61,947 bases of DNA from Clostridiales bacterium (GTDB taxonomy: Bacteria; Bacillota; Clostridia; Christensenellales; CAG-314). Below the pieces are notes generated by a model. The model searched no databases. It was given only the letters and a program-made list of their open reading frames with translations, and was not told the origin of the DNA. The stretch lies in the NCBI GenBank assembly GCA_022508325.1, contig JAFLVL010000002.1, positions 1 through 61,947 of the forward strand, read 5' to 3'. The stretch's first letter is position 1, and the number at the start of each line of letters is the position of its first letter. Shown here piece by piece: positions 15,466 to 48,809 of the stretch. A program made the position numbers and the translations under genes.

Positions 15466-17694
15466 ATGAAAAAGAAAAGACGTTTTTTGAAAGTTTTAGG
15501 AATAGTGACTGCAGTGTTGATAATTACAGGCGTTGCGGGCGGCGTAGGGTATGTTTCACACGTAAAACACAGCGAAAATTACGTGCAATTTGACAAAGGG
15601 CGACTTAACGAAGTCTATACTTCTCTGACCTTGTTGGATAAGGACGGGGCGCCGCTTGCCGAGCCACTGTATCTCAACGATTACAAGCAAATTCCGCTTG
15701 ACGCACTGCACGACTATACCTATATGGCGTTCGTGGCTGTCGAGGACAAACGCTTTTTTCAACATAACGGTATCGATTACAAGCGCGTAGGGGGCGCGAT
15801 TCTGCACAACATAAAAAGCGGCGGCTATAAAGAAGGTGCCTCCACTATCAGTCAACAACTTATCAAGAATACGCATTTAGACAATTACAAAACCCTTCGG
15901 CGTAAAGTCAACGAAATGCTTTTGGCAAGCGAGCTGGAAAGAGCGTACAGCAAAAGAGAAATATTGGAAATGTACGTCAACACCATTTACTTCGGACGAA
16001 GCGCCTACGGAATAGAAACCGCGGCAAACGTCTATTTTAACAAGAGCGCGGCAGATTTAACAGTATCAGAAAGCGCAGTGCTTGCCGGCATGATAAAAGC
16101 GCCAAACAATTACGCTCCCGACAAAAATGCAGAAAAATGCAAGGCGCGCAGAGACCGAGTGCTGAAATTGATGCTCGAACAGGGCATAATCGACCAATCG
16201 GCGTATGACGAGGCGATTGCTAGCGAAGTAACGTACACTCCGCAAGCGTCAAGTTCAGCAAAATCATACACCTATCACGTAATGCAAGAAGCGTGCAAAA
16301 TTCTCAATATGACACCGCTGCAGCTGGCAAAATCGGATTTCGTGATTGAAACCTACTGCAACCAACAAACGCAAAAGGAATTGACAAAGCTTGTCAATAG
16401 CGACGCTACCGCCACAAAAAACGGGGCTCTATCGCAGTTGGCGTGCGTTGTATGCGACAATAAAGGCGGAGTGGAAGCTTGCTATATGCGTGGCGAGGGG
16501 GCAGACGCTAAGCGTCAAGTCGGCAGCGCAATAAAGCCTATTGCAGTATATGCTCCTGCGCTCAACGAACGAATTATCACGCAGGCGTCGCCCGTACTGG
16601 ACGAGGAAACCGACTTCAACGGATATAAGCCGACTAACGCAGGAGGCTACAACGGATGGACGACAATCAAGTACGCCGTTGCAAAGAGCCTGAACGTGCC
16701 GGCAGTCAAAACGCTCAACGCGCTGGGGCTTCCGACGGCAGAAAAGTATCTGTCGAAGTTCGGAATCGATGGCGAGCAAAATTTATCTCTCGCACTAGGC
16801 AATGCAAACGGCGGCATGGATATATTTACGCTAGCCAAGTGCTACGCCACGCTTGCCAACGACGGCTGCGTAAACGACGTCGCGTTTATAAAAAATATTT
16901 ACAGCGAAAAGGGGCTGATTTACAGCAGAGAACAGGACAATGAAAGAGTTTTCAACACAGCAGCAAACTATCTGATGACGGATTTGTTGATAAACACTGT
17001 TGAAACAGGCACGGCAAAACTACTCAAAAACAACAAATTTCAAGTGGCGGCAAAGACGGGTACAGTCGGCAATTCGGAAGGCAATTCCGACGCTTTAGTA
17101 GCTGGCTACACTACTGAAAATACCTTCGTAGTTTGGTATAGCGGAGAAATGAACAATACTATAAACGGCGGCACAGAACCGTGCAAATTTGCCGCTAACC
17201 TATTAAACAAAATGTATACAGACAGTAAGCCCAAAAAGTTTGCTACGCCTAACTCGGTTATTCAACTTGACGTAGATAAGGACAGCTTGGATGAACAGCA
17301 GTTGGTTATAAAATGCGACATGGGGTTAAGATTTTGGTTTGATAAGGCAAATCAGCCCAAAGACGTTTTGAAAAAAATTGTGTATAACTACGCATTGGAA
17401 ATTGACTTGAAAGACAATACTGTTTTTGTCAAATTGCCCGAAGTAGAGAATGGCAAATGGCGACTCTACTCACAAGCCAAAAATGAACGCTCTAGTAATA
17501 TAGTTATAGAAAACGGGTTGTATATCGGCGAAATACAAGAAGATACGGAGTTTTACGCCGAGCTATACGTGAACAATAAGCTCGTCTACACTACTCCGCG
17601 CTCTAAGGTCTGCCCGACTGACTCAGCAAAGGAGCGAGAAGAAAAGAAAAATACCAACTTCCCATCACTCACCGACTTTTGGTACTGGCGCTAG
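15466..17694 (+). CDS. class A penicillin-binding protein (glycosyltransferase plus transpeptidase)
   Basis: N-terminal membrane anchor, GT51 motifs 'EDKRFFQHNGID' and 'GASTISQQL', and transpeptidase 'SAIKP' and 'KTGT'. Confidence 0.85.
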   Translation: MKKKRRFLKVLGIVTAVLIITGVAGGVGYVSHVKHSENYVQFDKGRLNEVYTSLTLLDKDGAPLAEPLYLNDYKQIPLDALHDYTYMAFVAVEDKRFFQHNGIDYKRVGGAILHNIKSGGYKEGASTISQQLIKNTHLDNYKTLRRKVNEMLLASELERAYSKREILEMYVNTIYFGRSAYGIETAANVYFNKSAADLTVSESAVLAGMIKAPNNYAPDKNAEKCKARRDRVLKLMLEQGIIDQSAYDEAIASEVTYTPQASSSAKSYTYHVMQEACKILNMTPLQLAKSDFVIETYCNQQTQKELTKLVNSDATATKNGALSQLACVVCDNKGGVEACYMRGEGADAKRQVGSAIKPIAVYAPALNERIITQASPVLDEETDFNGYKPTNAGGYNGWTTIKYAVAKSLNVPAVKTLNALGLPTAEKYLSKFGIDGEQNLSLALGNANGGMDIFTLAKCYATLANDGCVNDVAFIKNIYSEKGLIYSREQDNERVFNTAANYLMTDLLINTVETGTAKLLKNNKFQVAAKTGTVGNSEGNSDALVAGYTTENTFVVWYSGEMNNTINGGTEPCKFAANLLNKMYTDSKPKKFATPNSVIQLDVDKDSLDEQQLVIKCDMGLRFWFDKANQPKDVLKKIVYNYALEIDLKDNTVFVKLPEVENGKWRLYSQAKNERSSNIVIENGLYIGEIQEDTEFYAELYVNNKLVYTTPRSKVCPTDSAKEREEKKNTNFPSLTDFWYWR

Positions 17695-17733
17695 TAAATT
17701 TTTCAACTATACTTTGACTACATTACAAAAATA

Positions 17734-17765
17734 TTAGGCAGGATAACCTCCTGCCTAATTTCTTT
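17734..17765. terminator. bidirectional terminator between the PBP gene and the flavodoxin-like gene
   Basis: Stem TTAGGCAGGA / TCCTGCCTAA, loop TAACC, followed by TTTCTTTC. Confidence 0.65.
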
Positions 17766-17817
17766 CTATTATATTTAATACTCAAGCTATTTTTGGACGA
17801 TTTCGTTGCGCTACGAG

Positions 17818-18354
17818 TTATTTAGTTATGAAATGTTTCAAATCGGCAACTGCTTGCTCGGACGTCAAAATGTCGCCATTGATGCTCTCTTTCCCATATT
17901 TTTTAGCAGATAAAGACAAAATTCCCGGCATTTCTTCAGTGTGATAACTAAAAGCTGTTTGGAAATTTTCGATATTGCCGTTACTAATCACTATAAATTT
18001 TTTTGGTGTTTTCAAGTATCTTGTCAACAGTTGCTCGTTGTTTTGAAAATAGCAGAGACTTCTCTCGTTAAAAACAAAAAAGTTTGAGCATGGAAAATCG
18101 CAGTAATTTGGCACAATGAAATATGTAAGAGTACTATTCGTTATTGCGTCCAATATCTCGCACTCTTTGTCGTTGAAATATGGGCAATTGCTACCGCCGT
18201 TAAAGCATTGATATTCGCAGTCGACGCAAGCATTGATACTAAAATCTGCAAAATTGTAAATCTTAGCGTCTGGCAATTGAGATTTGATAAACCCGCTTAT
18301 TTGTGAAGAATTGCCACCTTTGCGAGAACTAAAAGAAACTATGCATACGCTCAT
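17818..18354 (-). CDS. flavodoxin-like fold protein (NAD(P)H-dependent FMN reductase / iron-sulfur flavoprotein type)
   Basis: N-terminal 'IVSFSSRKGGNS' FMN-binding-like loop plus a Cys-rich 'CVDCEYQCFNGGSNCPY'. The ATG at 18354 has an AGGAG Shine-Dalgarno; the track start at 18372 is GTG. Confidence 0.5.
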   Translation of the reverse strand: MSVCIVSFSSRKGGNSSQISGFIKSQLPDAKIYNFADFSINACVDCEYQCFNGGSNCPYFNDKECEILDAITNSTLTYFIVPNYCDFPCSNFFVFNERSLCYFQNNEQLLTRYLKTPKKFIVISNGNIENFQTAFSYHTEEMPGILSLSAKKYGKESINGDILTSEQAVADLKHFITK

Positions 18355-18440
18355 AAAGAAGCTCCTAAGCACTGAGCTGGAAGAAAATAATCCTAGTTTG
18401 TATCAGTGTTTTATTTTGAAGGCAATGCGCAATACCCTAC

Positions 18441-19592
18441 TTATTCTATAACCACCGTTTCAATGCTATTTAGCGCATTGTTGACAAGTGTTTCGACGTC
18501 GAGTGCGCTCTCTACCTTTTCTACAGCCGAAAGGCGAGGTTTTGTGACAGGGCGCTTGGGCAGAAATATCGTACAGCAGTCCTCATAAGGCAAAATTGAC
18601 GTCTCAAATGCACCGATTTTTTGCGAAATTTCAATAATTTCATCTTTATCGAAGCCGATAAGCGGTCTAAACACCGGGATTGTCGCAACAGAATTGGTAC
18701 TTGTTATACTTTCCAGTGTCTGACTCGCAACCTGCCCCAGGCTTTCACCTGTAATTACCGCGCCTGCGCTGTTCATTCGAGCAATCCGCTCGGCAATTCG
18801 CATCATAAAGCGGCGCATAATAGTTATCATGTACTCCTCAGGGCACTTTTCGTGTATTGCCGTTTGAATTTCAGTAAAACTCACAACATCTACTGTCATT
18901 CGTAAGGTGTATTTTTTGACTATTTTGGCAAGATCAAGAACTTTTTGTTTCGCCTGCATACTCGTATACGGAAAGCTGTGGAAATGCACCGCTCTGAGAG
19001 ACATTCCGCGCTTTGCCATCATATACGCCGCAACAGGACTGTCAATTCCGCCCGACAACATAACTATACCCTTGCCACCTGTACCCACCGGCATACCGTT
19101 GACAGCTTTTATGACTTGGCTAAATACAAATGTCTTGCCGTTCTCTCGAATATCGATGCTGACGGTGTGTTGCGGGTTCAACAAATCTACTTTCAATGCG
19201 GGATTGTGGTCTAAAATTACGCCGCCAACTTCAGCCGAAATTTTCATTGACGGCATGGGAAAACGTTTATCCGCGCGGTTGGTATTTACTTTAAATGTGC
19301 CAGAGCTAGGCGCAAAAAGCAACGCAGTTTGGCAAATTTGCTCTAAATCCGAATCAACTTCTTCCGCAATGCTGAGAGAATGTACGCCGAACACGTTCTT
19401 GACGGCGTCTACTATTTCGTCGAGGTACATTTCGTCAAAACTGCGGATTACGTAACGTGCATTGCTACGCGCAAATTCATATTTGTATTCAGCGAGAACT
19501 TTCCTAATATTGGCAACCAGTACACTCTCGAAAAAGTCTCTGTTATTGCCCTTTAAATGTATCTCGCCATATCTAATAATGATTACTTTCAT
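18441..19592 (-). CDS. thiI: tRNA 4-thiouridine synthase ThiI
   Basis: THUMP-type N-domain and the PP-loop 'SGGIDSPVA'. Confidence 0.85.
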   Translation of the reverse strand: MKVIIIRYGEIHLKGNNRDFFESVLVANIRKVLAEYKYEFARSNARYVIRSFDEMYLDEIVDAVKNVFGVHSLSIAEEVDSDLEQICQTALLFAPSSGTFKVNTNRADKRFPMPSMKISAEVGGVILDHNPALKVDLLNPQHTVSIDIRENGKTFVFSQVIKAVNGMPVGTGGKGIVMLSGGIDSPVAAYMMAKRGMSLRAVHFHSFPYTSMQAKQKVLDLAKIVKKYTLRMTVDVVSFTEIQTAIHEKCPEEYMITIMRRFMMRIAERIARMNSAGAVITGESLGQVASQTLESITSTNSVATIPVFRPLIGFDKDEIIEISQKIGAFETSILPYEDCCTIFLPKRPVTKPRLSAVEKVESALDVETLVNNALNSIETVVIE

Positions 19593-38194: not shown

Positions 38195-38268
38195 CTAATT
38201 AGTCAACATCCATTTTGCGTATATTCCGTAGCCACGCGTTGGGTCGTTAACGAAGACGTGGGTAACTG
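38195..38268. repeat. displaced copy of the spoIVB 3' end (island boundary, att-like)
   Basis: 65 of 74 nt identical to 48736-48809. On the minus strand it encodes VTHVFVNDPTRGYGIYAKWMLTN-stop, identical to the real SpoIVB C-terminus, but has no upstream gene body. Confidence 0.75.
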
Positions 38269-38368
38269 TCAAGAAGTTATAAGAAATTTTCTTCCATAAT
38301 TCGTGTAGTTTCGCTATAAAGCGAAATCTTTCGACAGGTATTGCACGACACATTTCGACCAATGCGTA

Positions 38369-39508
38369 TTATTTCTTCATGTCAAGCATTTCATTCACTC
38401 TTGTTTGTATAAATGCTTCGATAATCTTAAGTCGATCATTTGGCAAATTGTACTTGGGATGCTTTTTGAACTTAAAGTTAATCAACTTACGCAACTCTAC
38501 TCTCTGTCTATCCGACAAAAATTCTTGGACTAATGCGTCATAAGAAACTCCTTCAAATGCAGGTGTTCGGGTTTTTGCATACTTTTCAATCTCTCGCAAA
38601 TCGTCTTCCATCGCATAGTTGAAGAGCGAAAGACCGTTATCAAAAATCGGTGCTAATGCAATTGGCTTATTTGTACTGTTGTCAACAAGTAGCCCGAAAT
38701 TTCCGAAATGCCTATCGGTATTGCATACAAGAGCATCAAATATCATCATGTCGGCAAACTCATCATAATAACTGTCGCCAAGAGATTTCAGGTACTTTAC
38801 TGCCTTTGTTAATGTGCAATTAGGCAAAAATTTATGGATTGGAACATACGATGTATTAATGTCTGTAAAAAGCTCGCATGTCGAACATACAATATCTTTC
38901 CATTTGGACAAGCCATAATTAACATGTTTAAGCCCCATCCTTTCGGCTATTTGCGCCGCATAGAATTCGGAATAAGGTTCTTTTCCTGCGTTGGCTGCAC
39001 CCGAAGTACCGCCCTTGCTTAGATAAATTTTCTTGTTAATTCTGCGCCAGCATTTTCTGAGCATACCATTCGTGGTATATTCCGGCGATGAAGTAAACCC
39101 ATTGTGCGTTGTGCTACCGTAACCGGTATAGGCTATCAAAGCCAAAGTTCGACTAAAGCTGTTTTCGTAAAGATTGTAGCTTGCAAATTTTCCCCTGAAT
39201 CCCTCTTCGACAATCCAATAGCTGTCGTTAAGTGAAAGACCTTTACTCAACTGTATAATTCCGATTGTATCATTATGCGAAAGTCCACTTCGCGACAGAA
39301 TTTGATCAACAAACTCCCTATTTTTCGGTATTACGCGAGATGACAACCATCGGACAAGTCCTTCCGAATCGGGAGTCATTCCAATGGGTAATAAATATTT
39401 CAATTCGTCATTCACATATTCGATATGATAGACAATTTCTCCCAATTTAGCTCTTTGCAAACTAAACTTTAGAAGGATATTGTCGTATTCTCTTAATTCG
39501 AATATCAT
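38369..39508 (-). CDS. HipA-like serine/threonine kinase (toxin-type)
   Basis: Catalytic block 'FDALVCNTDRHFGNFGLL...APIFDNG' (HipA_C D-R-H-x-x-N motif) and a HipA-like N-terminal region. No HTH partner gene adjacent. Confidence 0.75.
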   Translation of the reverse strand: MIFELREYDNILLKFSLQRAKLGEIVYHIEYVNDELKYLLPIGMTPDSEGLVRWLSSRVIPKNREFVDQILSRSGLSHNDTIGIIQLSKGLSLNDSYWIVEEGFRGKFASYNLYENSFSRTLALIAYTGYGSTTHNGFTSSPEYTTNGMLRKCWRRINKKIYLSKGGTSGAANAGKEPYSEFYAAQIAERMGLKHVNYGLSKWKDIVCSTCELFTDINTSYVPIHKFLPNCTLTKAVKYLKSLGDSYYDEFADMMIFDALVCNTDRHFGNFGLLVDNSTNKPIALAPIFDNGLSLFNYAMEDDLREIEKYAKTRTPAFEGVSYDALVQEFLSDRQRVELRKLINFKFKKHPKYNLPNDRLKIIEAFIQTRVNEMLDMKK

Positions 39509-39695
39509 TGTTTACCAGCCCTTCCGCAATGAAAAATACAGTATAGTTTCCATCGAAACATTTTTTAATATTGTATCATATAAAAGCGGAAAATTCAATC
39601 AGTGAATAGGCATTGTACTTAAGCTTCTTAATGATTGAATTGAATTTAAAACAAAAAACATCAAAAATTTCGTTAATAATATCTTGCTCTGCGTT

Positions 39696-39971
39696 TTACT
39701 TTAGCTGATTAAGAATAAATTGTTCTAAGGCTTCTTGTAGGGATGGACCGTCATCATTAAATTCGACCTTTACAGGCGTATCTCCGACTTTGAATAAATA
39801 CGGATTTTTAATTTGTGCCATGAAAGACAGTATACGCTCAAGTACCGGTTTCGAAGTGTCTATATGTACGGTTCTTATGTCTACCAAATCTTCCAGCTTT
39901 ACATCACCAATATCCAAAGACTTAAGGCATTCCAATTGTTTTGACAAATTCTCTTTGTTTTTTTCACTCAT
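39696..39971 (-). CDS. small conserved hypothetical protein, DUF6870-like (assigned from memory)
   Basis: 'LVDIRTVHIDTSKPVLERILSFMAQIKNPYLFKVGDTPVKVEF' matches the pattern I recall for DUF6870 proteins on Firmicutes mobile elements. Confidence 0.4.
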   Translation of the reverse strand: MSEKNKENLSKQLECLKSLDIGDVKLEDLVDIRTVHIDTSKPVLERILSFMAQIKNPYLFKVGDTPVKVEFNDDGPSLQEALEQFILNQLK

Positions 39972-40114
39972 GCAATTTTCCCCTTATGTTATTACCTATG
40001 ATAATTATAGCATACTGCTTATATTTATCTATACTTATAGGCAAAAATCCTGTGAGTAAACATTTTATATATTAGAACGTCGGATTTAATTCAATGATAA
40101 TTTTTTTAAATTAA

Positions 40115-40150
40115 AAATAATATGGCAGTAAATTTACCGCCATATTATTT
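40115..40150 (-). terminator. terminator hairpin at the end of the RloB-like gene
   Basis: Stem AAATAATATGGC / GCCATATTATTT (40115-40126 / 40139-40150) with a T-rich tail on the minus strand. Confidence 0.5.
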
Positions 40151-40764
40151 TAATTAAATTTCTTTTCAATTTTAGTAACCCAAGAGGTATCAGCTTGTTC
40201 AAGTTTATCTAACAATTCTATAAAATTTGAACTTGGCACTTCTTGCCATTCACATGAGATAGCAGACAAATTGGCTTTCATAACAGAATAATTAGAAGAA
40301 TTTACTTGCTTCATTATTGTCTCTCGTTGATTTGCTTTGGCTTGATATTCCTCTACTCCTGTCAACCTTTTTATAACTGGTGCATTTTTTACTTTACTAT
40401 TTGACGATAATCGAACCGAATTAAAATGCGACAAAATTATTTGCATCGTACAAGGATTTGCAAAAAACACAATGTCCTTTGCCACTTTCTTATTGTGATA
40501 TTTATCTATCTTTTTAATTAAGTTTTTGAATTGACCATACGGCTCAATTTCAGTATCGCAGAAAATCATAATCAAATCTGAATTGTCATTTTGGAATTCA
40601 TTTTGATAAACTGCAGTAATGTTGTCAATCGACCTAGCGTTTTTCAGTTTGATTGTATAATTTGAGTGAAATACTTTACATTCTATTAATTTAGAAAAAT
40701 AATCGTACTCTTCATAGCCTTCACAAATTATACATATCTTCTTTTGTGAAAATTTATTACTCAT
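40150..40764 (-). CDS. RloB-family protein (AbiLii-like)
   Basis: N-terminal 'KKICIICEGYEEYDYF' matches the RloB hallmark (i-x-CEG-x-x-E-x-x-YF). The ATG at 40764 overlaps the ATPase stop by 8 nt (ATGAGTAA). Confidence 0.65.
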   Translation of the reverse strand: MSNKFSQKKICIICEGYEEYDYFSKLIECKVFHSNYTIKLKNARSIDNITAVYQNEFQNDNSDLIMIFCDTEIEPYGQFKNLIKKIDKYHNKKVAKDIVFFANPCTMQIILSHFNSVRLSSNSKVKNAPVIKRLTGVEEYQAKANQRETIMKQVNSSNYSVMKANLSAISCEWQEVPSSNFIELLDKLEQADTSWVTKIEKKFN

Positions 40765-42040
40765 CTGCACTGTCCCCCAACAAAATTGAAATTAAGTCGG
40801 GCTCAGGTAATGCTCCAAGAGCACCTAATTTATACTTTTCTAATAAATCAGACTCTGAACGAATATTATCTTTATGTGCAGTATAGTCTTTTAGCGAATA
40901 AATATATGCACCTTCATCATTCTTTGCAGCAAACCAAATCTGATCTTTTCTGAATAATTTTTTGCAGTCCAATAAAGTGCCATCATGTGCTGAAAAAATT
41001 ATCTGCGCTTTAGTATTTAATTCGTTATTAAATAAAGATATTATTGCACGAGTTAATTTAAAATGAAGACTGCTATCTAGTTCGTCAACAATAAGAATTT
41101 TCCCTTCTTCAAGAGCTTCAATTATAAAGCTCGCCAAAGAAACCATTTTTTTCGTTCCAGTAGAATCATAGATAAGACTCTGTACAGGCTTGCCTTTATG
41201 AATTGACGTCAGCCTTAACATATCTTCAAATGCAACTGTAAGCTGCAAAACCTGTTCCTGTGGAGCCGAATACTGATAAATATTGGGATTTCTTTTTACA
41301 CTTTCATTATCGCTTTTTACATACTTATAATCTTCTATATCTAAATCCGCTAGTTTTATTAGCTCGACTATTCTATTACCTATTTCTTTATTCTCTTTTA
41401 AAGTCTGTATAGTTTTGCCAAGCGGAATATTATTTGCGTCCAACACTTCTATCTTAAAAGCAAAACTTCTTAAAATATTTTTGTAATATTCAATAATAGG
41501 AAATTTTTCACTATTAATTGTATATATCAAAATATTGTCAGGTGATACAGCTTTAAGCAATACATTTAATTCTTCATTATCAGCAAACTTATAAACATTA
41601 TTTACCATGTCTCTGATATAAATTTCTTTTTCACTTTCAGTTCCATATTTATCAACAGTAATTTCGGCAAGTCTCTCGTATACAAATCCTCTTTTATACT
41701 GATTTGTTATGGTTGAATCATATCCAAAATCATAACTATATGCCTTCCCATCAAATAAGAAAGAAATTCCAAGAAGGCACAAATTATTATTAGTAAATAG
41801 ATTGGGAGGAACTTCTGCTACAATGCCCAATAAAACATTGCGAATAGAATTTATTGCTCTTATAACACATGTTTTACCAACATTATTACCACCATATATA
41901 CAAGCTGCTTTTACTACATTAAAATTATTCTGCTGATATACATTAGAATAAAATTTTTTAATTCTCATATCTGCAATTAATGACATTTCTGTTTTATTTG
42001 CATAAACAAGAAAATTATTAACTCTTATACTTAAAATCAT
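40757..42040 (-). CDS. ABC/SMC-like AAA_21-type ATPase (RloA / AbiLi-like)
   Basis: Walker A 'GGNNVGKT' near the N-terminus and distal 'ILIVDELDSSLHFKL' (Walker B / D-loop) and 'FSAHD' (H-loop). The ATG at 42040 has a GAGG Shine-Dalgarno; the track start at 42109 is GTG. Confidence 0.7.
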   Translation of the reverse strand: MILSIRVNNFLVYANKTEMSLIADMRIKKFYSNVYQQNNFNVVKAACIYGGNNVGKTCVIRAINSIRNVLLGIVAEVPPNLFTNNNLCLLGISFLFDGKAYSYDFGYDSTITNQYKRGFVYERLAEITVDKYGTESEKEIYIRDMVNNVYKFADNEELNVLLKAVSPDNILIYTINSEKFPIIEYYKNILRSFAFKIEVLDANNIPLGKTIQTLKENKEIGNRIVELIKLADLDIEDYKYVKSDNESVKRNPNIYQYSAPQEQVLQLTVAFEDMLRLTSIHKGKPVQSLIYDSTGTKKMVSLASFIIEALEEGKILIVDELDSSLHFKLTRAIISLFNNELNTKAQIIFSAHDGTLLDCKKLFRKDQIWFAAKNDEGAYIYSLKDYTAHKDNIRSESDLLEKYKLGALGALPEPDLISILLGDSADE

Positions 42041-42069
42041 TTTAAACCTCGCTTTATATTTATATTTAT

Positions 42070-42098
42070 AGTATACCACTAAAATATTTTTTGTGCAA
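42070..42098 (-). promoter_or_regulatory. candidate promoter TTGCAC-N17-TATACT for the ATPase/RloB pair, with an inverted repeat over the -35
   Basis: The reverse complement of 42093-42098 is TTGCAC and of 42070-42075 is TATACT. GTGCAA-N5-TTGCAC inverted repeat at 42093-42109. Confidence 0.4.
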
Positions 42099-42162
42099 TA
42101 TTTTTGCACGAAAAATATTTATTTTTATTATTCCCTGAAACACTTGTTTTAAACTGACTACA

Positions 42163-42197
42163 AAAAAGTATCCGAAAACATCTCCCGGATACTTTTT
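42163..42197. terminator. bidirectional rho-independent terminator
   Basis: Stem AAAAAGTATCCG / CGGATACTTTTT with an 11-nt loop. It probably ends readthrough from the radical SAM operon. Confidence 0.6.
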
Positions 42198-42826
42198 AAC
42201 TCTGATACTTTGGTCGCAAAAGGACTTAGAAACTTTACAAGTAAATTATATCACAGCTTCATCTACTAATCAATGATTAACTTTTACTTATTTTGTCGAA
42301 TTATTATTTTTAAAGTAAAATAAATTTATAGTGTAAAAGAGTTTATTAATTAACTAATTACAGTTTACACAAACCAATACTATCTTTCAAACTTATAATT
42401 CAATATACTTTATTATGAAATATAAAATGTAAACAGAGTTTTCTGCTGAGATTCATCGTTATAATTTCATATACTAAAATCAGTACAAAATGGTTAAGCA
42501 AATAAAATATTTTTGATTTTATCCGATATTACATATTGACATCAATATGCGAAAATGTATATCTTGAATAAATCCAGTATCCTCGTCAATCTCATTCAAA
42601 GCACCTGATATATTCTTATGTATTAAAACATCTTTCATCAGATGAAAATCCTCATATTTAGTCTATCATATTTTAAAACTAATATTAACTGTTGTTTTTT
42701 ATGAATTACATGTACAGATTACGCGCTTTCAACTATAAAACTATTGTATCTCTGTTATTACGTACTTTAATAGCACAAAAAAGAGTTCCACTCTGTAAGC
42801 GTAGCACTCATATTTTGAGATAAATT

Positions 42827-43939
42827 CTATTTTGTTAAATTTTCTTTTATTATCTTTTGAGCGTAAGGATTTATATTACATAAATCAATTTCAGATAAGC
42901 GCACTTCAATGTTATCATAAACCATATTCGTAACATAACACTCAAAAGAACTTTTTCTTTGTAAACTTCCATCTAATAAACACGACGCATTACAGCCACT
43001 GTTACATTTAGTTATCCACTTGCATTTTTTACAACTAGTTATTCGGATTTCATTGTCTTTTAAGATATTAAGGAATGGCTTACTTAAAAAAGCTTCTCGT
43101 ACATCTGAAATCTCAAAAACATTAGCTAATTTAAATCCATCCTTTATTAATCGTCCACAAGGATAAATATCGCCATATGCATCTATAGCAATATATCTAA
43201 ACAAACATCCATGGTTTAGACATCCCGATTTAACGCCAAAATACTGGTGTAACAAATCTACACAAGACGCGACTCGAATGTTACATTTTTTATCATATAG
43301 CCAGTAATTAAACAATTCGATAAAATTATTTGTCCATTCTTCTTTACTAAGAGAAAAATCTTCATGTTGTTTGGCCGCACCATCAGGGAAAATATGGTTA
43401 AATTTTACAGGAATATTTCTTTGCTTGAAACACTCATACATATCCAATAAATGATTTATCGACTTAGATGAAACTGTAGCTAAGCAACTAAATGGCACCC
43501 CCTGTTCTTGCAATTTTGCAATTACTTTCTCTACTTTCTCCGTTTGTTGTCGCATATATGAATTATATGGTCCGTCATAGGATATAGATATGGATGTTTT
43601 GTTTGCTTGAAATAAGACTATAAACTCGTCAGTTAGAAGTGTCCCATTTGTCTGCAAATTAAACCTAAACTTGCAATCAAATTTATTCGAAAAAGTGTCA
43701 AACATTTTGTATGCCTTTTCGAAAAACTCAAATCCGGCTAACAGTGGTTCTCCTCCATGCCATATTATTTTTATTGTACTATAATTGGGCGCAAGAATAC
43801 TCAAAAATCTCTCAAGAGTACCTATTTCCATTATTTTTGTATCATATCCCGTATCTGCATGGTAACAATGCAAACATCTTAAATTGCAGGCGTTAGTGGG
43901 TTCTAATAATACGAGTATATCTTTGCTGAAATTCATCAT
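42827..43939 (-). CDS. radical SAM / SPASM-domain enzyme, anSME-like architecture
   Basis: 'CNLRCLHC' (CX3CX2C) at residues 18-25. C-terminal 'CLFRYIAIDAYGDIYPC' (CX10GX4C) and 'CKKCKWITKCNSGC' (CX2CX5CX3C) form the SPASM motif. Blocks 'GGEPLLAG.EFFEK', 'LQTNGTLL', 'SYDGP' and 'CKKCKW' resemble anaerobic sulfatase-maturating enzymes. No N-terminal RRE extension. Confidence 0.85.
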   Translation of the reverse strand: MMNFSKDILVLLEPTNACNLRCLHCYHADTGYDTKIMEIGTLERFLSILAPNYSTIKIIWHGGEPLLAGFEFFEKAYKMFDTFSNKFDCKFRFNLQTNGTLLTDEFIVLFQANKTSISISYDGPYNSYMRQQTEKVEKVIAKLQEQGVPFSCLATVSSKSINHLLDMYECFKQRNIPVKFNHIFPDGAAKQHEDFSLSKEEWTNNFIELFNYWLYDKKCNIRVASCVDLLHQYFGVKSGCLNHGCLFRYIAIDAYGDIYPCGRLIKDGFKLANVFEISDVREAFLSKPFLNILKDNEIRITSCKKCKWITKCNSGCNASCLLDGSLQRKSSFECYVTNMVYDNIEVRLSEIDLCNINPYAQKIIKENLTK

Positions 43940-43951
43940 TTTATTTTACCT

Positions 43952-44131
43952 TTAATATACTGGTAACTCTGAATATTCGGAGTACTCAGAATACTGTGAA
44001 TAATCAGAGTAATCGGCATCGCTATCAGAGTAATAAAAAATAAACGCATCATAATCCGTAATGGTCTGCGACAACAACCTTTTATATTTATCGTACAATT
44101 TAATTAGTTTTTGTTTATTCTTGTCATTCAT
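43952..44131 (-). CDS. unannotated 59-aa ORF, candidate radical SAM substrate peptide
   Basis: Hand translation: MNDKNKQKLIKLYDKYKRLLSQTITDYDAFIFYYSDSDADYSDYSQYSEYSEYSELPVY. The ATG overlaps the upstream stop by 8 nt (ATGAATGA), and the TAA lies 12 nt before the radical SAM ATG. It falls one residue below the 60-aa track cutoff. Confidence 0.55.
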   Translation of the reverse strand: MNDKNKQKLIKLYDKYKRLLSQTITDYDAFIFYYSDSDADYSDYSQYSEYSEYSELPVY

Positions 44132-45530
44132 GCGTTTTCACCTCGCTATATATAAATTTTATGAATGGATGCACCTCATATATATCTTTATCAATAATCC
44201 TTGTTTTCAAAATGATAGTCGAATCCAATAAAAACTGTTTTAATGTTTTTCGTTTGAAAGCTGACGTTCCAACGCCACCAGCCCTTGTACGTATCCTTAA
44301 TAACGAATCATCGAATTCTTTCTCACTCATCTTGCTACTAACGCTAATGATATATTTTTTTATATCTGCGATAGTATCTTTGTTGCGATGACAATCTGTG
44401 TATAGAGAAAGTGTCTCAAAATAGTCATCAATAATATCACGCTCTCTAGATTTAGCATTAGAGAATTCTTCATTGCGATAATATTTTTTTAGAGTCATTT
44501 CATCGTAACAATATTTATTTTCTATTCCACAAAAATTATTAGATGTGTTTAATGAATGAGATAATGGTAGAAAAATCCAATATGGATTATTGCCACTGTT
44601 GTCAATAACTTGTTTTAAAAATTCATTATTTGTTAGATGTGCTTTTTTTCCATTAAAATATAATGAACACTTACACTCCTCTTTCATTTTTTTGCATCGA
44701 TAAATTTGATTAGCGCATCCTTTGCCGTTTTTATGCTTTCTAGTATATGTTCTGATAGAACGAAGCATTATATCTAAGACTTCGTCTTCGCTTAATTGAG
44801 GCCAAGCATAGTTTAAGTCTTGAATCTTGCTTCGATATTCTACAGGCAACTTTCCACTGCCATTATCGAAACATTCAAATAAGCTTGTTTCAACTGCAAT
44901 GATAAATATTGGATTTCGGGATTTTAAAAAGAATTCAAAACATACTTTTCTAAATCTTGTAACTTGTTCACAACTATATTTGCTCCTTAATTTATTTCGA
45001 CAAAAACTATCGAAATTATCAACCAAATAAATAGTCTTTTGGTTTGTAGTCGGAAACATTTTTCTTAAAAACGCACCAATGATATTTCCATCATTTATCA
45101 TTTCCGACGAAAAACAGACATTTCCAAATTTTTCATTTGCATCAACTAATTGAACAGATTCACCATTCACACAAAAATTGTTAAGTCTTTCTCTTAATAA
45201 TTCCAAAAATGGTGATTTTCCAATATATCGCCCTCCATAAAAAAAGGTTTTATAACTACTGCCCAAAATACCCTCTAGAAGTTTGGCTCCACACATGCCT
45301 TTATTATCTACACAAACCCTAAGAACCTCTTGATATACAATCCTTTGCAATTCCACACAAGTATCATCAGCCAAATCAGCGTTTAGCGTATCTATGCCAT
45401 CTTTAGTCAAACTGTTAAAATACTTCAACATGCAATAGTACTTTATTTTTTTTGAAATTACTTCTGACTTGTTTGGTCTAACTACTTGTTCGTCCAATTC
45501 ATCAAGAGGTCTAAATCTTTTTTTACCCAT
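44124..45530 (-). CDS. P-loop NTPase of unknown family
   Basis: Walker A 'GGRYIGKS' (residues 99-106), Walker B 'TIYLVD' (166-171), Cys cluster 'CANQIYRCKKMKEECKC'. GAGGATGAG Shine-Dalgarno upstream. No family recognised. Confidence 0.55.
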   Translation of the reverse strand: MGKKRFRPLDELDEQVVRPNKSEVISKKIKYYCMLKYFNSLTKDGIDTLNADLADDTCVELQRIVYQEVLRVCVDNKGMCGAKLLEGILGSSYKTFFYGGRYIGKSPFLELLRERLNNFCVNGESVQLVDANEKFGNVCFSSEMINDGNIIGAFLRKMFPTTNQKTIYLVDNFDSFCRNKLRSKYSCEQVTRFRKVCFEFFLKSRNPIFIIAVETSLFECFDNGSGKLPVEYRSKIQDLNYAWPQLSEDEVLDIMLRSIRTYTRKHKNGKGCANQIYRCKKMKEECKCSLYFNGKKAHLTNNEFLKQVIDNSGNNPYWIFLPLSHSLNTSNNFCGIENKYCYDEMTLKKYYRNEEFSNAKSRERDIIDDYFETLSLYTDCHRNKDTIADIKKYIISVSSKMSEKEFDDSLLRIRTRAGGVGTSAFKRKTLKQFLLDSTIILKTRIIDKDIYEVHPFIKFIYSEVKTHE

Positions 45531-45557
45531 AGTTGCTCATCCTCAGTAAAGTCAAGT

Positions 45558-46241
45558 TTATTTCCTGCTTATTAATTGCTTTAAAATAAAAATGTTTTCC
45601 ACCATACCCTTGATATAGACCTTAAGTGCTGTATAATTATCACTGCTATTGTCTATTCTCTCGTTAAATTCTTCAATATAGGATTCCACCTTATGTAGCG
45701 TAACCGAAATTTGACCTTTCTTTTGTTTTTTTCTCATCCAGTTCTGAAAAACAATGTACCTAGGAATATTATAAAATATACTATCACTTTCAACCGAACA
45801 ACAAACGTTACGTATGCTTTCTATACCTAACCCGTTTTTAATGTTATTGTAAATAACTTTATATTGTTCATCATCAAGTTGCGGAATTATTTTAAAATTA
45901 GGTATAGTCTTACCAAACATTTTTTTAATTAAGACATCTAACTCCTCATTAATCACGCAGACGAGCGATTGATACTTATCCAATGTTTTCCATTGATGAA
46001 TGTAGGTAGCTTCAAATATAAAGCCAATACAGACACCTGCAAAACTTCCAACGAAACTCGATAAAACATTAATTACATAGTCATCTTTCAAGGCAAGAAA
46101 CTTAAGTTTCAAAAACATTTGCATCAATAATTTTATTAAAATCGGTGCAATACACAAGCATAATGCAAATATCAGAAATGATTTTAAAATAATTACAAAT
46201 CTATGCCAACCGACTGAATAATATTTGTTATCTTTATCCAT
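45558..46241 (-). CDS. 2-TM membrane protein of unknown function
   Basis: Two N-terminal hydrophobic helices ('FVIILKSFLIFALCLCIAPILIKLL', 'VINVLSSFVGSFAGVCIGFIF') followed by a roughly 140-aa soluble region. First gene of the four-gene operon. Confidence 0.5.
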   Translation of the reverse strand: MDKDNKYYSVGWHRFVIILKSFLIFALCLCIAPILIKLLMQMFLKLKFLALKDDYVINVLSSFVGSFAGVCIGFIFEATYIHQWKTLDKYQSLVCVINEELDVLIKKMFGKTIPNFKIIPQLDDEQYKVIYNNIKNGLGIESIRNVCCSVESDSIFYNIPRYIVFQNWMRKKQKKGQISVTLHKVESYIEEFNERIDNSSDNYTALKVYIKGMVENIFILKQLISRK

Positions 46242-46363
46242 TTTTTATTTCCTAAACTAATATGTTATAAACTACGAATAGTCAATTCTTGCTGGAATTT
46301 ATTTATATATACTTATTTCTTACCGAGCCATAAACAACAATTTCATCAATAACTGGTAGATTT

Positions 46364-46387
46364 ACAAACGAATTTTTTTTCGTTTGT
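46364..46387 (-). terminator. hairpin just after the CD-NTase stop (weak terminator candidate)
   Basis: 9-bp stem ACAAACGAA / TTCGTTTGT with a 6-nt loop, but no U-run after the stem on the minus strand. Confidence 0.3.
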
Positions 46388-46392
46388 CATTG

Positions 46393-47460
46393 CTATGCAA
46401 TTTTAATTACTCTATTAATGTCATCTCCTATGTCTCCCAACATCATAGAAGTCACTGATTGTAACTGCCTAACCCCTTCTATGCTTTCAGAACTACTTAG
46501 TTGATCGCCTAGCGGATCTAAAAGTTTACTAAAATTCTTTTCATGTCCATAAAATTCAAGTGTTTCATTTATTACCTTTAAAAGCGTCAGAGGGCTTTCT
46601 CCAATCCAATATTTATTAGTAGGAATAGTATATAAAAGCGAACTTATTGCATAACTGCTAAAATTAATTTTTGCACCTAGTTCTCTTTCAGCATCTGTTT
46701 TAATTGTTTTCAAAAGTCGTATCGCTCGTTTAAATACACCCCCTGTAAAAGAATCTTTGTTCTTTAACAAATCATTAAACCAGAAAGGGTAGTTTAATAT
46801 TCTCTCGTTATTCCTCTTGTTATAAATTTGAATTCCTCTATATATTGCATTGTTTGTTTCGGCATATCTATTACTGTTAAACCAATTCGCTGGCACCACG
46901 TCAACTTTTACAATTAAAGAACCTCCTGATAATGCAATACTTTTTGCTCCACTATTATCAACATGTACAGAAGACATCACTTTTTTTATTTGTCCCACGC
47001 AGTTATTCCGTAATTCTGCCAAATCATTTTCAGGCACTCCTTTGTAAGGATACTGTGGCCTCTGGGGATGTTCAAGAGTTTCATATAAACCAATAATTGT
47101 CAGCAAATCAACATCACTATTATGTCTAATGTGAGTATTATTGGATACTGATCCTTGGTATTTGAACTCGAGAGGAGCAGAATAATAAATGTTATCATTC
47201 ATCTGTTTTAGAACATTTTCGACACTCTTTCTACAGCTAATAATTTGTTGTGTATAATTTTGTGCTACAGGTAGCATGCCGCCGACTATATACCTAATGA
47301 GCGAACTTTCTTGCACCCACTGGTACTGCCTTGCTTGATTAAAACTCTCATACGCTGCAGCATTATGCCGTAATTCTTGTTCCTCAAGTAAAATTCTTTG
47401 CGCTGAACCGAACTTTCGAAAATCCATTTCTTTTAGTAATTTATCATAATCAAAATTCAT
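46393..47460 (-). CDS. CD-NTase / SMODS-type nucleotidyltransferase (CBASS cyclase)
   Basis: Pol-beta NTase motif 'YQGSVSNNTHIRHNSDVDLL' (G-S ... D-x-D) and third acidic residue in 'VKVDVVPA', as in cGAS/DncV-like enzymes. GGAG Shine-Dalgarno inside the end of the upstream gene. Confidence 0.7.
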   Translation of the reverse strand: MNFDYDKLLKEMDFRKFGSAQRILLEEQELRHNAAAYESFNQARQYQWVQESSLIRYIVGGMLPVAQNYTQQIISCRKSVENVLKQMNDNIYYSAPLEFKYQGSVSNNTHIRHNSDVDLLTIIGLYETLEHPQRPQYPYKGVPENDLAELRNNCVGQIKKVMSSVHVDNSGAKSIALSGGSLIVKVDVVPANWFNSNRYAETNNAIYRGIQIYNKRNNERILNYPFWFNDLLKNKDSFTGGVFKRAIRLLKTIKTDAERELGAKINFSSYAISSLLYTIPTNKYWIGESPLTLLKVINETLEFYGHEKNFSKLLDPLGDQLSSSESIEGVRQLQSVTSMMLGDIGDDINRVIKIA

Positions 47461-47461
47461 T

Positions 47462-48061
47462 TTATTTCTCCTGTTTTATTAATTTAATCGTACCATATCT
47501 TGGCCTATCTACTGGATAGTTGTAATACTTGCCATTAATAGAATTGTTATCAAACGTGATTGAAGCTGTACCATCATGTTTATGTAAAGCTTTTAAATTT
47601 CCATTTGGGGCATTCATATAACAATAATACAAATAGATACTCCCATCGTCTGATACATCGATATGCGCCATATAACTCTGCGAATATGAATTATCTGTTT
47701 TTAATGAAATCAGTATTTTAGACCATGTTTGTTTAATCGTTACAGTTCCTTTCCAGTCTGAAGTTTTGAAGTTTGATTTGCCGTCACACAAATATTGACC
47801 ACTTATTTTTTTACTTTTTATGCCGGGTATTATTTGCCATAACCATCTGTCGAATATAAAATACAATGCTGCAAATATAGATGAAAAACCAAATCCGATA
47901 ATCAAAATAAAAGTTATAAAAGGTGATCCAAGATTATCTGACAGCCTTCTTACAATAAAATCACACAACGGGGTTAAAACCAAATTAAGAATCATTGATA
48001 GTATTGTAATAATAACAATACTTAGTCTTCGATGACATTTATTTGATGTATACTTATGCAT
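47462..48061 (-). CDS. 2TM plus beta-rich effector, Cap15-like (CBASS effector)
   Basis: Two N-terminal TM helices followed by a roughly 125-aa beta-strand-patterned domain ('GTVTIKQTWSKILISLKT', 'SIYLYYCY', 'GTASITF', 'GTIKLIK'). Its stop is 1 nt from the NTase ATG. Confidence 0.5.
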   Translation of the reverse strand: MHKYTSNKCHRRLSIVIITILSMILNLVLTPLCDFIVRRLSDNLGSPFITFILIIGFGFSSIFAALYFIFDRWLWQIIPGIKSKKISGQYLCDGKSNFKTSDWKGTVTIKQTWSKILISLKTDNSYSQSYMAHIDVSDDGSIYLYYCYMNAPNGNLKALHKHDGTASITFDNNSINGKYYNYPVDRPRYGTIKLIKQEK

Positions 48062-48294
48062 TAAACTTCACCCTCTAGCTTTTCTCATGCAGACATAGCA
48101 ACTCTATATTTAATGATCTGCACCAGACACAAATTAACATTTTGTTAAGACATTTCTCGCACCAATCTCAATTAGATATAGCTGACAATGAGATTCAATG
48201 GATTGTCTTTTTTTGTTATTTATTTAATATACCTGGTATAGTATAAAAAAGTTAAGTTTATTTAAAAATTAAGAAAAATTTTTATTAAAACTAA

Positions 48295-48486
48295 TCACTG
48301 CACCATTTTGTTTCTACGAATTAGCTAAATAAAGGTGCGGATCTACGTTCTGTTCAAGCAATACTTGCTCAAACTAGCGTAGCAACCACTCAAATTTATA
48401 CAGAAGTTAGTACAAACCGTAAAAAACAAGTTTTAAAAAAAATTATAGAAATAAGTTGTGATAATATTTTGAAATTTATTGACTGA
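48295..48486 (+). pseudogene. C-terminal remnant of a tyrosine recombinase/integrase
   Basis: Translates to SLHHFVSTN*LNKGADLRSVQAILAQTSVATTQIYTEV... versus the family pattern LRH-FAT-LL--GADLR-VQ-LLGH-S--TTQIYTHV. It has an in-frame TAG, Arg to His and His to Gln substitutions at catalytic positions, and no upstream gene body. Confidence 0.7.
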
Positions 48487-48735
48487 AAATTATTTGGCAC
48501 AATTTGGGCACAAAGTTGGCAGAAAAATGCGGATGCTTTTTATTTTGAAGCCTGCTATAATATGGACAAACAAACGGTCAAATCAAGTTTGACACTCAAT
48601 TTGACCGTTTGGATTTAATAATAGTTATTTGTTATATTTTTCACGTTTGTACTTTATTATTTGATAATCATGCATCGCTAACGTAAAAGAAAAGGAGGTC
48701 ATTAAACGTTAGCAAAATACAATGTATAGTAATAT

Positions 48736-48809
48736 CTAATTAGTCAGCATCCACTTGGCGTAGATGCCGTAGCCGCGCGTAGGGTCGTTAACGAATACGT
48801 GGGTGACTG
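48736..48809. repeat. spoIVB 3'-end copy inside the intact gene (partner of 38195-38268)
   Basis: 74-nt alignment with 9 mismatches, all synonymous (8 at third codon positions plus one TTG/CTG Leu). Confidence 0.75.

Follow-up and report, generated by a model that had tools for sequence, protein, structure and literature searches.

What is a four-gene operon that encodes a membrane protein, a P-loop-like protein, a very short peptide and a radical S-adenosylmethionine (SAM) enzyme doing between two anti-phage systems? We met this arrangement in a stretch of 61,947 nt, hereafter the window, on contig JAFLVL010000002.1 of a Clostridiales bacterium (GenBank assembly GCA_022508325.1). An initial annotation, made from the sequence alone, had put it forward as a single unit and as a candidate undescribed system, either of the defence type or of the kind that makes peptides synthesized by the ribosome and modified after translation (RiPPs). 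Comparison with related loci shows that the four genes are one co-conserved unit, a horizontally mobile cassette. The chemistry of its enzyme and the role of its product can be narrowed down from the same comparison, with less certainty.

All four genes lie on the minus strand within 3.4 kb. In order of transcription, they encode a 227-residue protein with two transmembrane (TM) helices, a 468-residue soluble protein resembling a P-loop nucleoside triphosphatase (NTPase-like protein), a 59-residue peptide and a 370-residue radical SAM/SPASM enzyme (Table 1). The stop codon of the TM gene is separated from the ATG of the NTPase-like gene by 27 nt, in which GAGGATGAG can be read. An 8-nt overlap, ATGAATGA, joins the NTPase-like stop to the peptide start, with a GAGGTG Shine-Dalgarno sequence 8 nt upstream, and 12 nt lie between the peptide stop and the ATGATG start of the enzyme gene. 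The open reading frames (ORFs), both gaps, the overlap and the named motifs are all present where the initial annotation had placed them. No convincing terminator was found between any of the four genes. A search of Rfam gave no match within 41900-46600, and a promoter scan of the cassette region produced scores no higher than shuffled background.

DNA around members of the enzyme's clade was taken from species-representative genomes, assemblies and metagenomes. Among relatives of the enzyme at about 46-68% identity, 15 loci have sufficient flank, and in these the order TM protein, NTPase-like protein, peptide, enzyme is identical; these are the window and 14 others, which we number L003, L004, L005, L006, L083-85, L086-87, L088-89, L090-91, L092, L093, L094/95/L108, L188, L189 and L190. 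Three further loci are cut by contig ends (L002, L008, L027), and their visible genes are consistent with the cassette. Across loci the junctions are short or overlapping, and the NTPase-like stop overlaps or abuts the peptide start. Order and spacing are thus kept while the flanks change from locus to locus, unrelated to one another, which bears out the earlier claim that the genes belong together and passes the refuting condition that the initial annotation had set for it. The partner proteins themselves have diverged to 17-22% identity for the NTPase-like family and 21-25% for the TM family, with homology still recognisable. Every host is known as a metagenome-assembled genome (MAG), either from uncultured Clostridia of the gut or from Christensenella (Christensenellaceae).

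The list of genes that are missing holds as well. No sulfatase, exporter, or PqqD/RiPP recognition element (RRE) gene occurs in any of the approximately 18 loci, so what had been said of the window alone applies to every locus examined. A leader protease had also been said to be lacking. The conserved core has none, but a candidate, an HExxH protein, is present in two loci, L003 and L007. In L007 (3364-9080) the enzyme gene directly follows genes for a kinase, a PP2C-like protein and this ATLF-like HExxH protein, and in L003 the same protein is encoded ahead of the TM gene. A role as leader peptidase is conceivable for it; alternatively, L007 may have degenerated or been rewired.

By its sequence the enzyme is a SPASM enzyme of the peptide-maturase type, as had been proposed. 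Both Pfam domains are above their cut-offs (Radical_SAM PF04055, 56.2 bits against a gathering threshold of 29.5, E 6e-15; SPASM PF13186, 26.1 bits against 21.5, E 1e-5) and its cluster cysteines are complete. Beside the CX3CX2C motif, eight further cysteines stand in the SPASM arrangement, at residues 240, 245, 261, 303, 306, 312, 316 and 334, and these eight auxiliary-cluster positions are invariant across 46 family members; the family as a whole keeps every cluster cysteine. There is no N-terminal RRE domain, the radical SAM core beginning at residue 10. The family consists of about 48 clusters (at 90% identity) with 44-68% identity, beyond which identity drops to 36% or less.

Among curated models the best NCBIfam matches, in bits against the cut-off, are DynA (169 against 450), the anaerobic sulfatase-maturating enzyme, anSME (159 against 349), and TIGR04083 (131 against 300), followed by PapB. 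Apart from anSME, the top matches are peptide maturase models, namely DynA, TIGR04083, PapB, AmcB, YhhB and GrrM. Models of cyclophane-forming enzymes are all missed: AmcB (98.6 against 425), YhhB (98 against 445), GrrM (89.6 against 310), FxsB (61.5 against 370) and XyeB (51 against 450). The dynobactin and darobactin models are not reached either (DynA NF041298 as above; DarE, 83 against 650), and the peptide core has no Trp. The mycofactocin model MftC gives 55.9 against 265, and a PqqD-like gene is absent. In PADLOC-DB v2 the enzyme matches pVip weakly (3e-12) over residues 15-127, which is the shared radical SAM core.

The nearest entries in the Protein Data Bank (PDB) are anSME 4k36 (4e-29), CteB 5wgg and ChlB 9gm3, the last of which makes triceptides. 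The description of the enzyme as anSME-like therefore stands as far as its nearest neighbour by similarity is concerned, but not as to function. Neither anSME model is reached (TIGR03942, 159.5 against 349.45; PRK13758, 101.9 against 441), and in the alignment to 4k36 the anSME segment ypCDfy faces ypCGrl in our enzyme, an Asp to Gly change after the third cysteine of the first auxiliary cluster (AuxI). The Gly is kept in at least 90% of the family. The Asp at this position is the proposed catalytic base of anSME, Asp277 of anSMEcpe.

Homologous precursor ORFs, of 44-59 residues, lie directly upstream of the enzyme gene in 17 distinct related loci, or 18 if L008, a near-duplicate of L005, is included. 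All 17 precursors begin with a helical leader of the form L..L...Y..Y, continue with [DNES]-F-[IV]-F and, after a linker of 2-9 residues, carry one to six triplets of the Y-S-D type; all 17 contain Y-x-[DE] and [YH]-S-[DNR]. Since both position and motif are kept in so many distinct loci, the short ORF is a feature of the cassette more than of chance. Its repeat is maintained at the protein level, because three consecutive Y-S-E units in the window peptide use different synonymous codons and TRF detected no tandem repeat in the DNA that encodes it. The peptide lacks a sulfatase-type C/S-x-P/A-x-R motif, and no double-glycine or other cleavage motif was found in the conserved core. Val-Tyr is the C-terminus of the window copy alone; orthologues end in TED, PSI, DSD, SDD, SND, SDR, DGW and similar. 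MftC-like chemistry on a C-terminal Val-Tyr, one of the precedents named in the initial annotation, is excluded by this distribution.

The same annotation knew of no described RiPP family with this gene set. That holds insofar as no PADLOC, Pfam or NCBIfam model covers it and none of the papers found describes it, but the pair of peptide and enzyme is not chemically orphan, because Y-x-D is a described substrate of YxdB and relatives of the enzyme at 30-38% identity carry [YH]-x-D precursors. YxdB is reported to form a bond between Tyr-C3 and Asp-C-beta on YxD motifs (PMC11002830), and minviopeptin loses 2 Da for each of the triplets YSK, HAS and FTK (PMC12912966). Because aromatic-X-X triplets are substrates of cyclophane-forming radical SAM enzymes, we judge a YxD/E-type cyclophane the likeliest outcome here. 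By analogy, then, the reaction most likely yields a three-residue cyclophane (triceptide) linking Tyr-C3 to C-beta of Asp or Glu.

The second gene had been described as a P-loop NTPase. The window copy does carry Walker A and Walker B motifs, but the Walker A Lys is found in only 4 of 14 aligned orthologues (window, L003, L027, L092) and is replaced in the other 10, where the motif reads GMS, GVS, GTS, GLT, GTT, GIT or GAT. Elsewhere the family is stricter: C33 and D171 are invariant in the alignment, and G104 of the P-loop, D174, Arg194, C279, C288 and Y461 are present in at least 90%. The Walker B Asp pair is thereby kept. Also conserved are an NPxW motif and, at the C-terminus, the tail PF[IV]x[YF][IV]YS[DE]xK.F; hydropathy indicates a soluble protein. 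On these sequence features we read it as an AAA+/STAND-like protein with a mostly degenerate P-loop, a switch or scaffold for which hydrolysis is not the conserved function; loss of the Walker A Lys in most orthologues argues against a conserved motor. An ATP-driven exporter was considered and rejected for the same reason.

Homology searches with this protein gave little. The window copy has no match in Pfam, NCBIfam or PADLOC. One orthologue gives weak Pfam matches (ATPase_2, 1.2e-4; NB-ARC, 1.7e-3; AAA_22), and a PDB profile search with the family touched DnaI and Cdc6 weakly (E ~0.6-0.8). AlphaFold2 returned a confidence (pLDDT) of 35 from the single sequence and 32 from a 3-sequence alignment. 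Word-indexed searches with the single sequence and with a 6-sequence profile retrieved the protein itself and one orthologue; an exhaustive phmmer search of 1.84e9 representatives added one more family member and a 1935-residue match that is probably spurious. By eye, the tail PFIKFIYSE (44127-44171) resembles the F-I-F...Y-S-D part of the peptide (43967-44044). A hidden Markov model (HMM) of the tail, run against 4568 six-frame segments, retrieved every NTPase-like tail and no precursor at E<50, which leaves homology between tail and precursor unsupported. If the resemblance were real, the enzyme might modify the protein tail too, or the peptide might mimic it.

The TM protein had no significant match in Pfam, NCBIfam, PADLOC or PDB. 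Its helices span residues 22-40 and 57-81 and are followed by a soluble C-terminal domain of about 150 residues. All members of the family have the two-helix hairpin with a soluble C-terminal domain of approximately 150-250 residues, the second helix conserving (L)LPDFLGGxxGxxxGF, and the homologues occupy the same position in all family loci. L088 has a second homologue (10658-13045; HMM E 4e-19), located 5 kb further downstream than the cassette and followed by a Sel1/leucine-rich repeat protein, not by an NTPase-like protein. Pairing with other partners is thus within the reach of the TM family.

Outside the cassette clade, these two partners disappear. HMMs of the TM and NTPase-like families found no homologue in 16 loci whose radical SAM enzyme is 30-38% identical to ours, nor in IMG/VR loci, which makes both genes an innovation of the cassette clade. 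Most of the 16 loci carry [YH]xD-type precursors. In this neighbouring clade the precursor leader is of a similar Y..Y form, and the cores include YTDYTD, YSEYLDYHDYSD and HDNSGGHPDYHNDSHDN. His/Tyr-x-Asp repeat precursors were seen in L013-L019 and L112 (Bacilli and Muribaculaceae MAGs) and in L026, L033, L035, L038, L042 and L043. Their cores include HENGHDNSGGHPDYHNDSHDNT, YTDYTD and HSDSHSDYDDYADHNDYDD, and some cores are longer than 100 residues or are present as several copies in tandem. No further partner was seen in this clade apart from a 191-residue protein encoded downstream of the enzyme in L013 and L019. The clade may be an unexplored, His-rich triceptide-like group. One member, L098 (7850-9074 of IMGVR_UViG_3300037044_000078, predicted viral), has an enzyme 33% identical to ours after a 45-residue ORF that ends in YPEYGEYSEYLDYHDYSDGPETGDDD; here a Y-x-E/D precursor and its enzyme reside on a phage or prophage, again without TM and NTPase-like genes. 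IMG/VR otherwise contains just this clade, at 35% identity or less and lacking both partners. In plasmid and phage databases we found relatives of the enzyme at less than 30% identity only, and no close relative.

In the window the cassette sits in an AT-rich island (GC 0.25-0.33, against ~0.44 in the flanks). The 74-nt repeats at its two ends mark it off as DNA inserted where spoIVB has its 3' end; within these bounds we saw no integrase ORF. The defence setting that had been described is confirmed, with a cyclic oligonucleotide-based anti-phage signalling system (CBASS) on one side and AbiL on the other. The HipA-like and DUF6870 genes, which lie beyond AbiLii, may constitute another element of the toxin-antitoxin or defence type. 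In the CBASS, the Cap15 gene precedes the cyclase gene, and the stop of the latter is 151 nt from the TM gene. As no terminator is predicted in this gap, read-through from the CBASS into the cassette is possible.

Other copies of the cassette also adjoin defence or mobile genes, a tally over approximately 17 loci and not a controlled enrichment. Neighbours include AriA/GajA-like (L002, 1e-53) and Tmn (L090, 6e-64) genes. L092 is on an integrative and conjugative element (ICE) with ArdA, PcfJ and PcfK, where the cassette stands beside an LmuB-like (Lamassu-like) gene (8e-21) and HsdM. A TraG/VirD4 gene adjoins the cassette in L094, and an integrase is a neighbour in L006. Upstream in L188 (1-5670), an AAA ATPase and a trypsin-like protease form a pair like ietAS, and a 1451-residue orphan is also encoded there. 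The commonest neighbours are a Ser/Thr kinase and a PP2C-like protein of 650-710 residues (L003, L005, L007, L088, L093, L094/L108, L190). The genes of these sets are adjacent and mostly co-directional; a vWA gene was called in four loci, and L086 has a kinase with TerD. In L190 an NB-ARC/nSTAND3 protein (16741-18486) is encoded downstream of the set of vWA, kinase and PP2C-like genes. This is the architecture of TerY-P triads, made up of a vWA protein, a PP2C phosphatase and a Ser/Thr kinase, which are reported to be stand-alone anti-phage systems and also to occur as add-ons to defence operons (Anantharaman 2012 and Gao 2020, as summarised in PMC11090510). As the identity of the vWA and PP2C genes was not confirmed by PADLOC, Pfam or PDB, we call our sets TerY-P-like only. 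Directly downstream of the cassette, L086 (9347-16734; also L087) encodes a double-AAA+ FtsH-like protein (IetA-like, 4e-47; Peptidase_M41) and an FtsK_gamma protein. These are followed by an unrelated 434-residue radical SAM gene with a 39-residue ORF, then by Metallophos and Clp_N genes. We found no papers that link radical SAM/SPASM enzymes to anti-phage systems or to TerY-P.

Table 1. Features of the four-gene cassette and of the island that contains it (window positions)
Feature	Position	Strand	Remark
AT-rich island, ~10.5 kb	38195..48809	.	inserted at 3' end of spoIVB
74-nt direct repeats	38195-38268, 48736-48809		88% identical; one is the spoIVB 3' end, the other a duplicated fragment
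HipA-like kinase gene	38369-39508		HipA_C 1.6e-7
DUF6870 protein gene	39696-39971		1.5e-28
AbiLii/AbiLi	40150-42109		PADLOC; AbiLi/AbiLii 2e-64, 3.5e-8
Gene 4, radical SAM/SPASM enzyme	42827..43939	-	370 aa; Pfam Radical_SAM and SPASM
Enzyme, SPASM cysteines	span ~42935-43222	-	
Enzyme, PCGR motif	43151-43165	-	Gly at the position of the anSME Asp
Enzyme, GGEP motif	43745-43762	-	
Enzyme, CX3CX2C motif (CNLRCLHC)	43865-43888	-	residues 18-25
Gene 3, precursor peptide	43952..44131	-	59 aa; ORF and homologous ORFs in related loci
Precursor core YYSDSDADYSDYSQYSEYSEYSE	43967-44035	-	six Y-S-[DQE] triplets
Precursor, recognition-like motif F-I-F	44036-44044	-	
Precursor, leader L..L.Y..Y (LIKLYDKY)	44084-44107	-	
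Gene 2, soluble P-loop-like protein	44124..45530	-	468 aa; orphan family, evolving fast
NTPase-like protein, conserved C-terminal tail HPFIKFIYSEVKTHE	44127-44171	-	
NTPase-like protein, Cys cluster CANQIYRCKKMKEECKC	44667-44717	-	
NTPase-like protein, Walker B IYLVDNFD	45009-45032	-	residues 167-174
NTPase-like protein, Walker A GGRYIGKS	45213-45236	-	residues 99-106
Gene 1, 2-TM membrane protein	45558..46241	-	227 aa; ORF and hydropathy; orphan family
CBASS cyclase	46393-47460		PADLOC 8e-84
Cap15 2TM effector	47462-48061		PADLOC 1e-40

Taken together, a conserved mobile cassette that is often found beside anti-phage genes may be a new peptide-based conflict system. The reading we tentatively prefer, at a little short of an even chance, is that the enzyme cross-links the Y-S-D/E triplets and that the product stays with the cell, where it forms a mobile conflict module with the 2-TM protein and the degenerate P-loop switch, at times coupled to a kinase triad. 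The SPASM enzyme would bind the co-translated 59-residue precursor at its leader and F-[IV]-F motif and modify its Tyr-Ser-Asp/Glu triplets, as membership of the enzyme family and the conserved pairing suggest. If the analogy with known triceptides holds, Tyr-C3 to C-beta (Asp/Glu) cyclophanes would form at a cost of 2 Da per triplet and give a rigid, strongly acidic, poly-cyclic product. No conserved protease, ABC exporter or RRE accompanies the pair, from which we infer that the product is probably cell-associated; it would remain in or with the cell and work with its two obligate, clade-specific partners. Of these, the NTPase-like protein would be a switch under the control of a ligand, or a scaffold, and not a motor that couples energy, and the 2-TM hairpin a membrane-acting or anchoring output. 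The neighbourhood makes a role in defence plausible, and the cassette might serve against phages or mobile elements or in abortive infection. It might do so alone or as an add-on to the triads of vWA, Ser/Thr kinase and PP2C-like proteins. A further-reaching version, in which an intracellular poly-cyclophane acidic peptide gates a degenerate STAND/AAA+-like switch and a 2-TM effector, can plug into TerY-P-like signalling and so represents a new class of conflict system, we consider rather unlikely.

Several observations weigh against our preferred reading. The enzyme scores under the curated cut-off in all 62 NCBIfam families that it matches, so that the type of reaction is read from the substrate motif. 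Within that motif, the middle Ser is conserved as strongly as the Tyr and the Asp, which would fit Ser-centred chemistry. The fold class of the NTPase-like protein hangs on an E of about 1e-4 in one orthologue, the structural models being unusable. Many RiPP clusters use host proteases and generic exporters, and the missing genes are thus no proof of intracellular action. As for defence, the TM, NTPase-like and peptide products match no system model in PADLOC-DB v2, the vWA and PP2C-like neighbours gave no PADLOC match to TerY-P, and the PP2C-like motifs (ADGLGG, GDSRCY, SDGxFD) were read by eye and not confirmed by Pfam or PDB. In L004, L083-85 and L189 the cassette has housekeeping genes on both sides and no defence neighbour. 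Finally, L007 is the sole exception to co-conservation: its enzyme, 47% identical to ours, comes without peptide, TM or NTPase-like gene, and there is no precursor-like ORF within 8 kb.

The main rival is an ordinary secreted RiPP of the triceptide type, which we regard as somewhat unlikely. The peptide would be trimmed by a host protease or the HExxH protein and released as a bacteriocin, metal chelator or signal; the TM protein would be the export pore or confer immunity, and the NTPase-like protein would be a chaperone, scaffold or regulator for the precursor. The pair of precursor and enzyme does derive from a larger group of minimal precursor and radical SAM clusters with [YH]xD cores and Y..Y leaders, and the streptide operon offers a case in which a radical SAM enzyme is paired with a small membrane protein. 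The HExxH protein stands in the operon of L003 and L007, and several loci are flanked by housekeeping genes. Known triceptide clusters are also small (PMC11002830). Set against this, the conserved core has no cleavage motif, peptidase or ABC transporter, and a two-helix protein with a partner that has lost the Walker A Lys in 10 of 14 orthologues would make a poor energy-driven exporter. Both partner genes are missing from the relatives whose clusters have the look of plain RiPP ones, and the cassette repeatedly adjoins defence genes, ICE cargo and kinase triads. Those relatives, with peptide and enzyme but without the other two genes, would equally suit two independent modules lying side by side, a TM/NTPase-like sensor and effector pair and a RiPP pair, a partition that the initial annotation had itself raised. 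We hold this to be very improbable. At enzyme identities of at least ~46% the four genes are never apart, save in L007; order and tight junctions persist despite the divergence of the NTPase-like proteins and changing flanks; the NTPase-like stop overlaps or abuts the peptide start; and an exhaustive search places the NTPase-like family nowhere else.

The kinase triads raise another possibility, that the cassette is an accessory of TerY-P-like signalling, its peptide, cross-linked or not, a phospho-acceptor for the kinase or an acidic ligand for the metal ion-dependent adhesion site (MIDAS) of the vWA protein, with the enzyme, NTPase-like and TM proteins tuning or reading the signal and the window copy a stand-alone remnant. 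S-D/E is a typical context for acidophilic kinases, and the MIDAS of vWA proteins is a binding site for acidic side chains. A kinase and a PP2C-like gene, with or without vWA, lie beside the cassette in seven loci, L086 has its kinase and TerD, and the L007 enzyme is linked to the triad in the absence of the other three cassette genes. Attachment to other defence operons is a known property of TerY-P triads (PMC11090510). The triad is absent, however, from seven loci, namely the window, L004, L083, L090, L092, L188 and L189, and is therefore not required to keep the cassette. With PADLOC giving no backing for TerY-P, the PP2C assignment unconfirmed and the peptide's part as ligand or substrate purely conjectural, we find this account improbable. 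Least credible of all is that the enzyme is an anSME or a cofactor synthase like those of pyrroloquinoline quinone (PQQ) or mycofactocin, the short ORF being incidental or a cofactor precursor. It has in its favour that the nearest solved structure is an anSME, that TIGR03942 is the second-best NCBIfam match and that Val-Tyr stands at the C-terminus of the window peptide, as in MftA. But that ending is peculiar to the window copy, the anSME score is less than half of its cut-off, the Asp beside the auxiliary-cluster cysteine is Gly in at least 90% of the family, the peptide has no C/S-x-P/A-x-R motif, and the loci contain no genes for a sulfatase, PqqD/MftB, PqqB/C or a dependent dehydrogenase. 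Scores, partners and motifs that define an anSME, a sulfatase system, mycofactocin or PQQ thus all speak against these readings, which we rejected.

Work on peptides modified by radical SAM enzymes has nearly always treated them as natural products for secretion. Nucleotides, nucleases, pores and NTPase switches all serve in anti-phage systems, and we know of no cross-linked ribosomal peptide that does. A cassette with a triceptide-like pair and two orphan proteins would, if functional, join the two fields, and if the peptide indeed is an intracellular ligand, RiPP chemistry would have been recruited for immunity. The Y-S-D/E repeats would be a new substrate motif for cyclophane enzymology, and the cassette, which with four genes in 3.4 kb is small enough to be tested directly, possibly a handle on the targets of TerY-P-type kinase triads. 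Even if it proves to be no more than a RiPP cluster, uncultured Clostridia of the gut will have yielded a precursor class and two accessory families that are new.

Among known systems, the peptide and its enzyme come closest to the YxD triceptides and their three-residue cyclophane-forming enzymes, or 3-CyFEs (XncB, OscB/GrrM, MscB/FxsB, YhhB, HaaB, ChlB, MicB). These are RRE-less SPASM enzymes of about 370 residues, as here. As in YxdA/YxdB-type clusters, a short precursor directly precedes the enzyme and has a C-terminal core of aromatic-X-X triplets, in our case Y-S-D/E/Q. The window enzyme nevertheless falls below every curated 3-CyFE cut-off, and its likeness to YxdB is one of substrate motif; unlike YxdB-type triceptides, the cassette conserves a Ser at triplet position 2. 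Described triceptide clusters lack its obligate 2-TM and NTPase-like partners and the context of defence islands, ICEs and kinase triads, whereas the cassette lacks their exporter or protease. With anSME (TIGR03942; 4k36) the enzyme shares its length, the CX3CX2C motif and the cysteine pattern of two auxiliary clusters; it differs in having no sulfatase partner, no sulfatase motif in the peptide and Gly for Asp, as well as in its score (159 against 349 bits).

A computational precedent for a small peptide modified by a radical SAM enzyme within an NTPase-centred conflict system exists in the FtsH ternary (vWA-MoxR) systems, in which the enzyme is predicted to modify a stand-alone peptide effector (Kaur, Burroughs, Iyer, Aravind 2020; PMC7159879). 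The locus downstream of the L086 cassette, with its FtsH-like protein, second radical SAM enzyme and 39-residue ORF, resembles such a system. That second enzyme (434 residues), however, is outside the cassette family, the cassette core contains no MoxR, vWA or FtsH, and its TM and NTPase-like partners belong to different families. The likeness to TerY-P lies in the vWA, Pkinase and PP2C-like genes beside the cassette in four loci and the kinase and PP2C-like genes in three more; as the window has no triad, this is association with the cassette and not membership. Pairs of a STAND/AAA+ protein and a TM effector, of the Avs type or as in Tmn, likewise place a soluble P-loop protein beside a small TM protein in defence islands. 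In the cassette, by contrast, there is no known effector domain, the Walker A Lys is mostly lost, and the peptide and radical SAM enzyme are obligate. The cassette thus joins a RiPP pair of a known kind to two novel, obligate orphan partners, a gene set that is, to our knowledge, undescribed.

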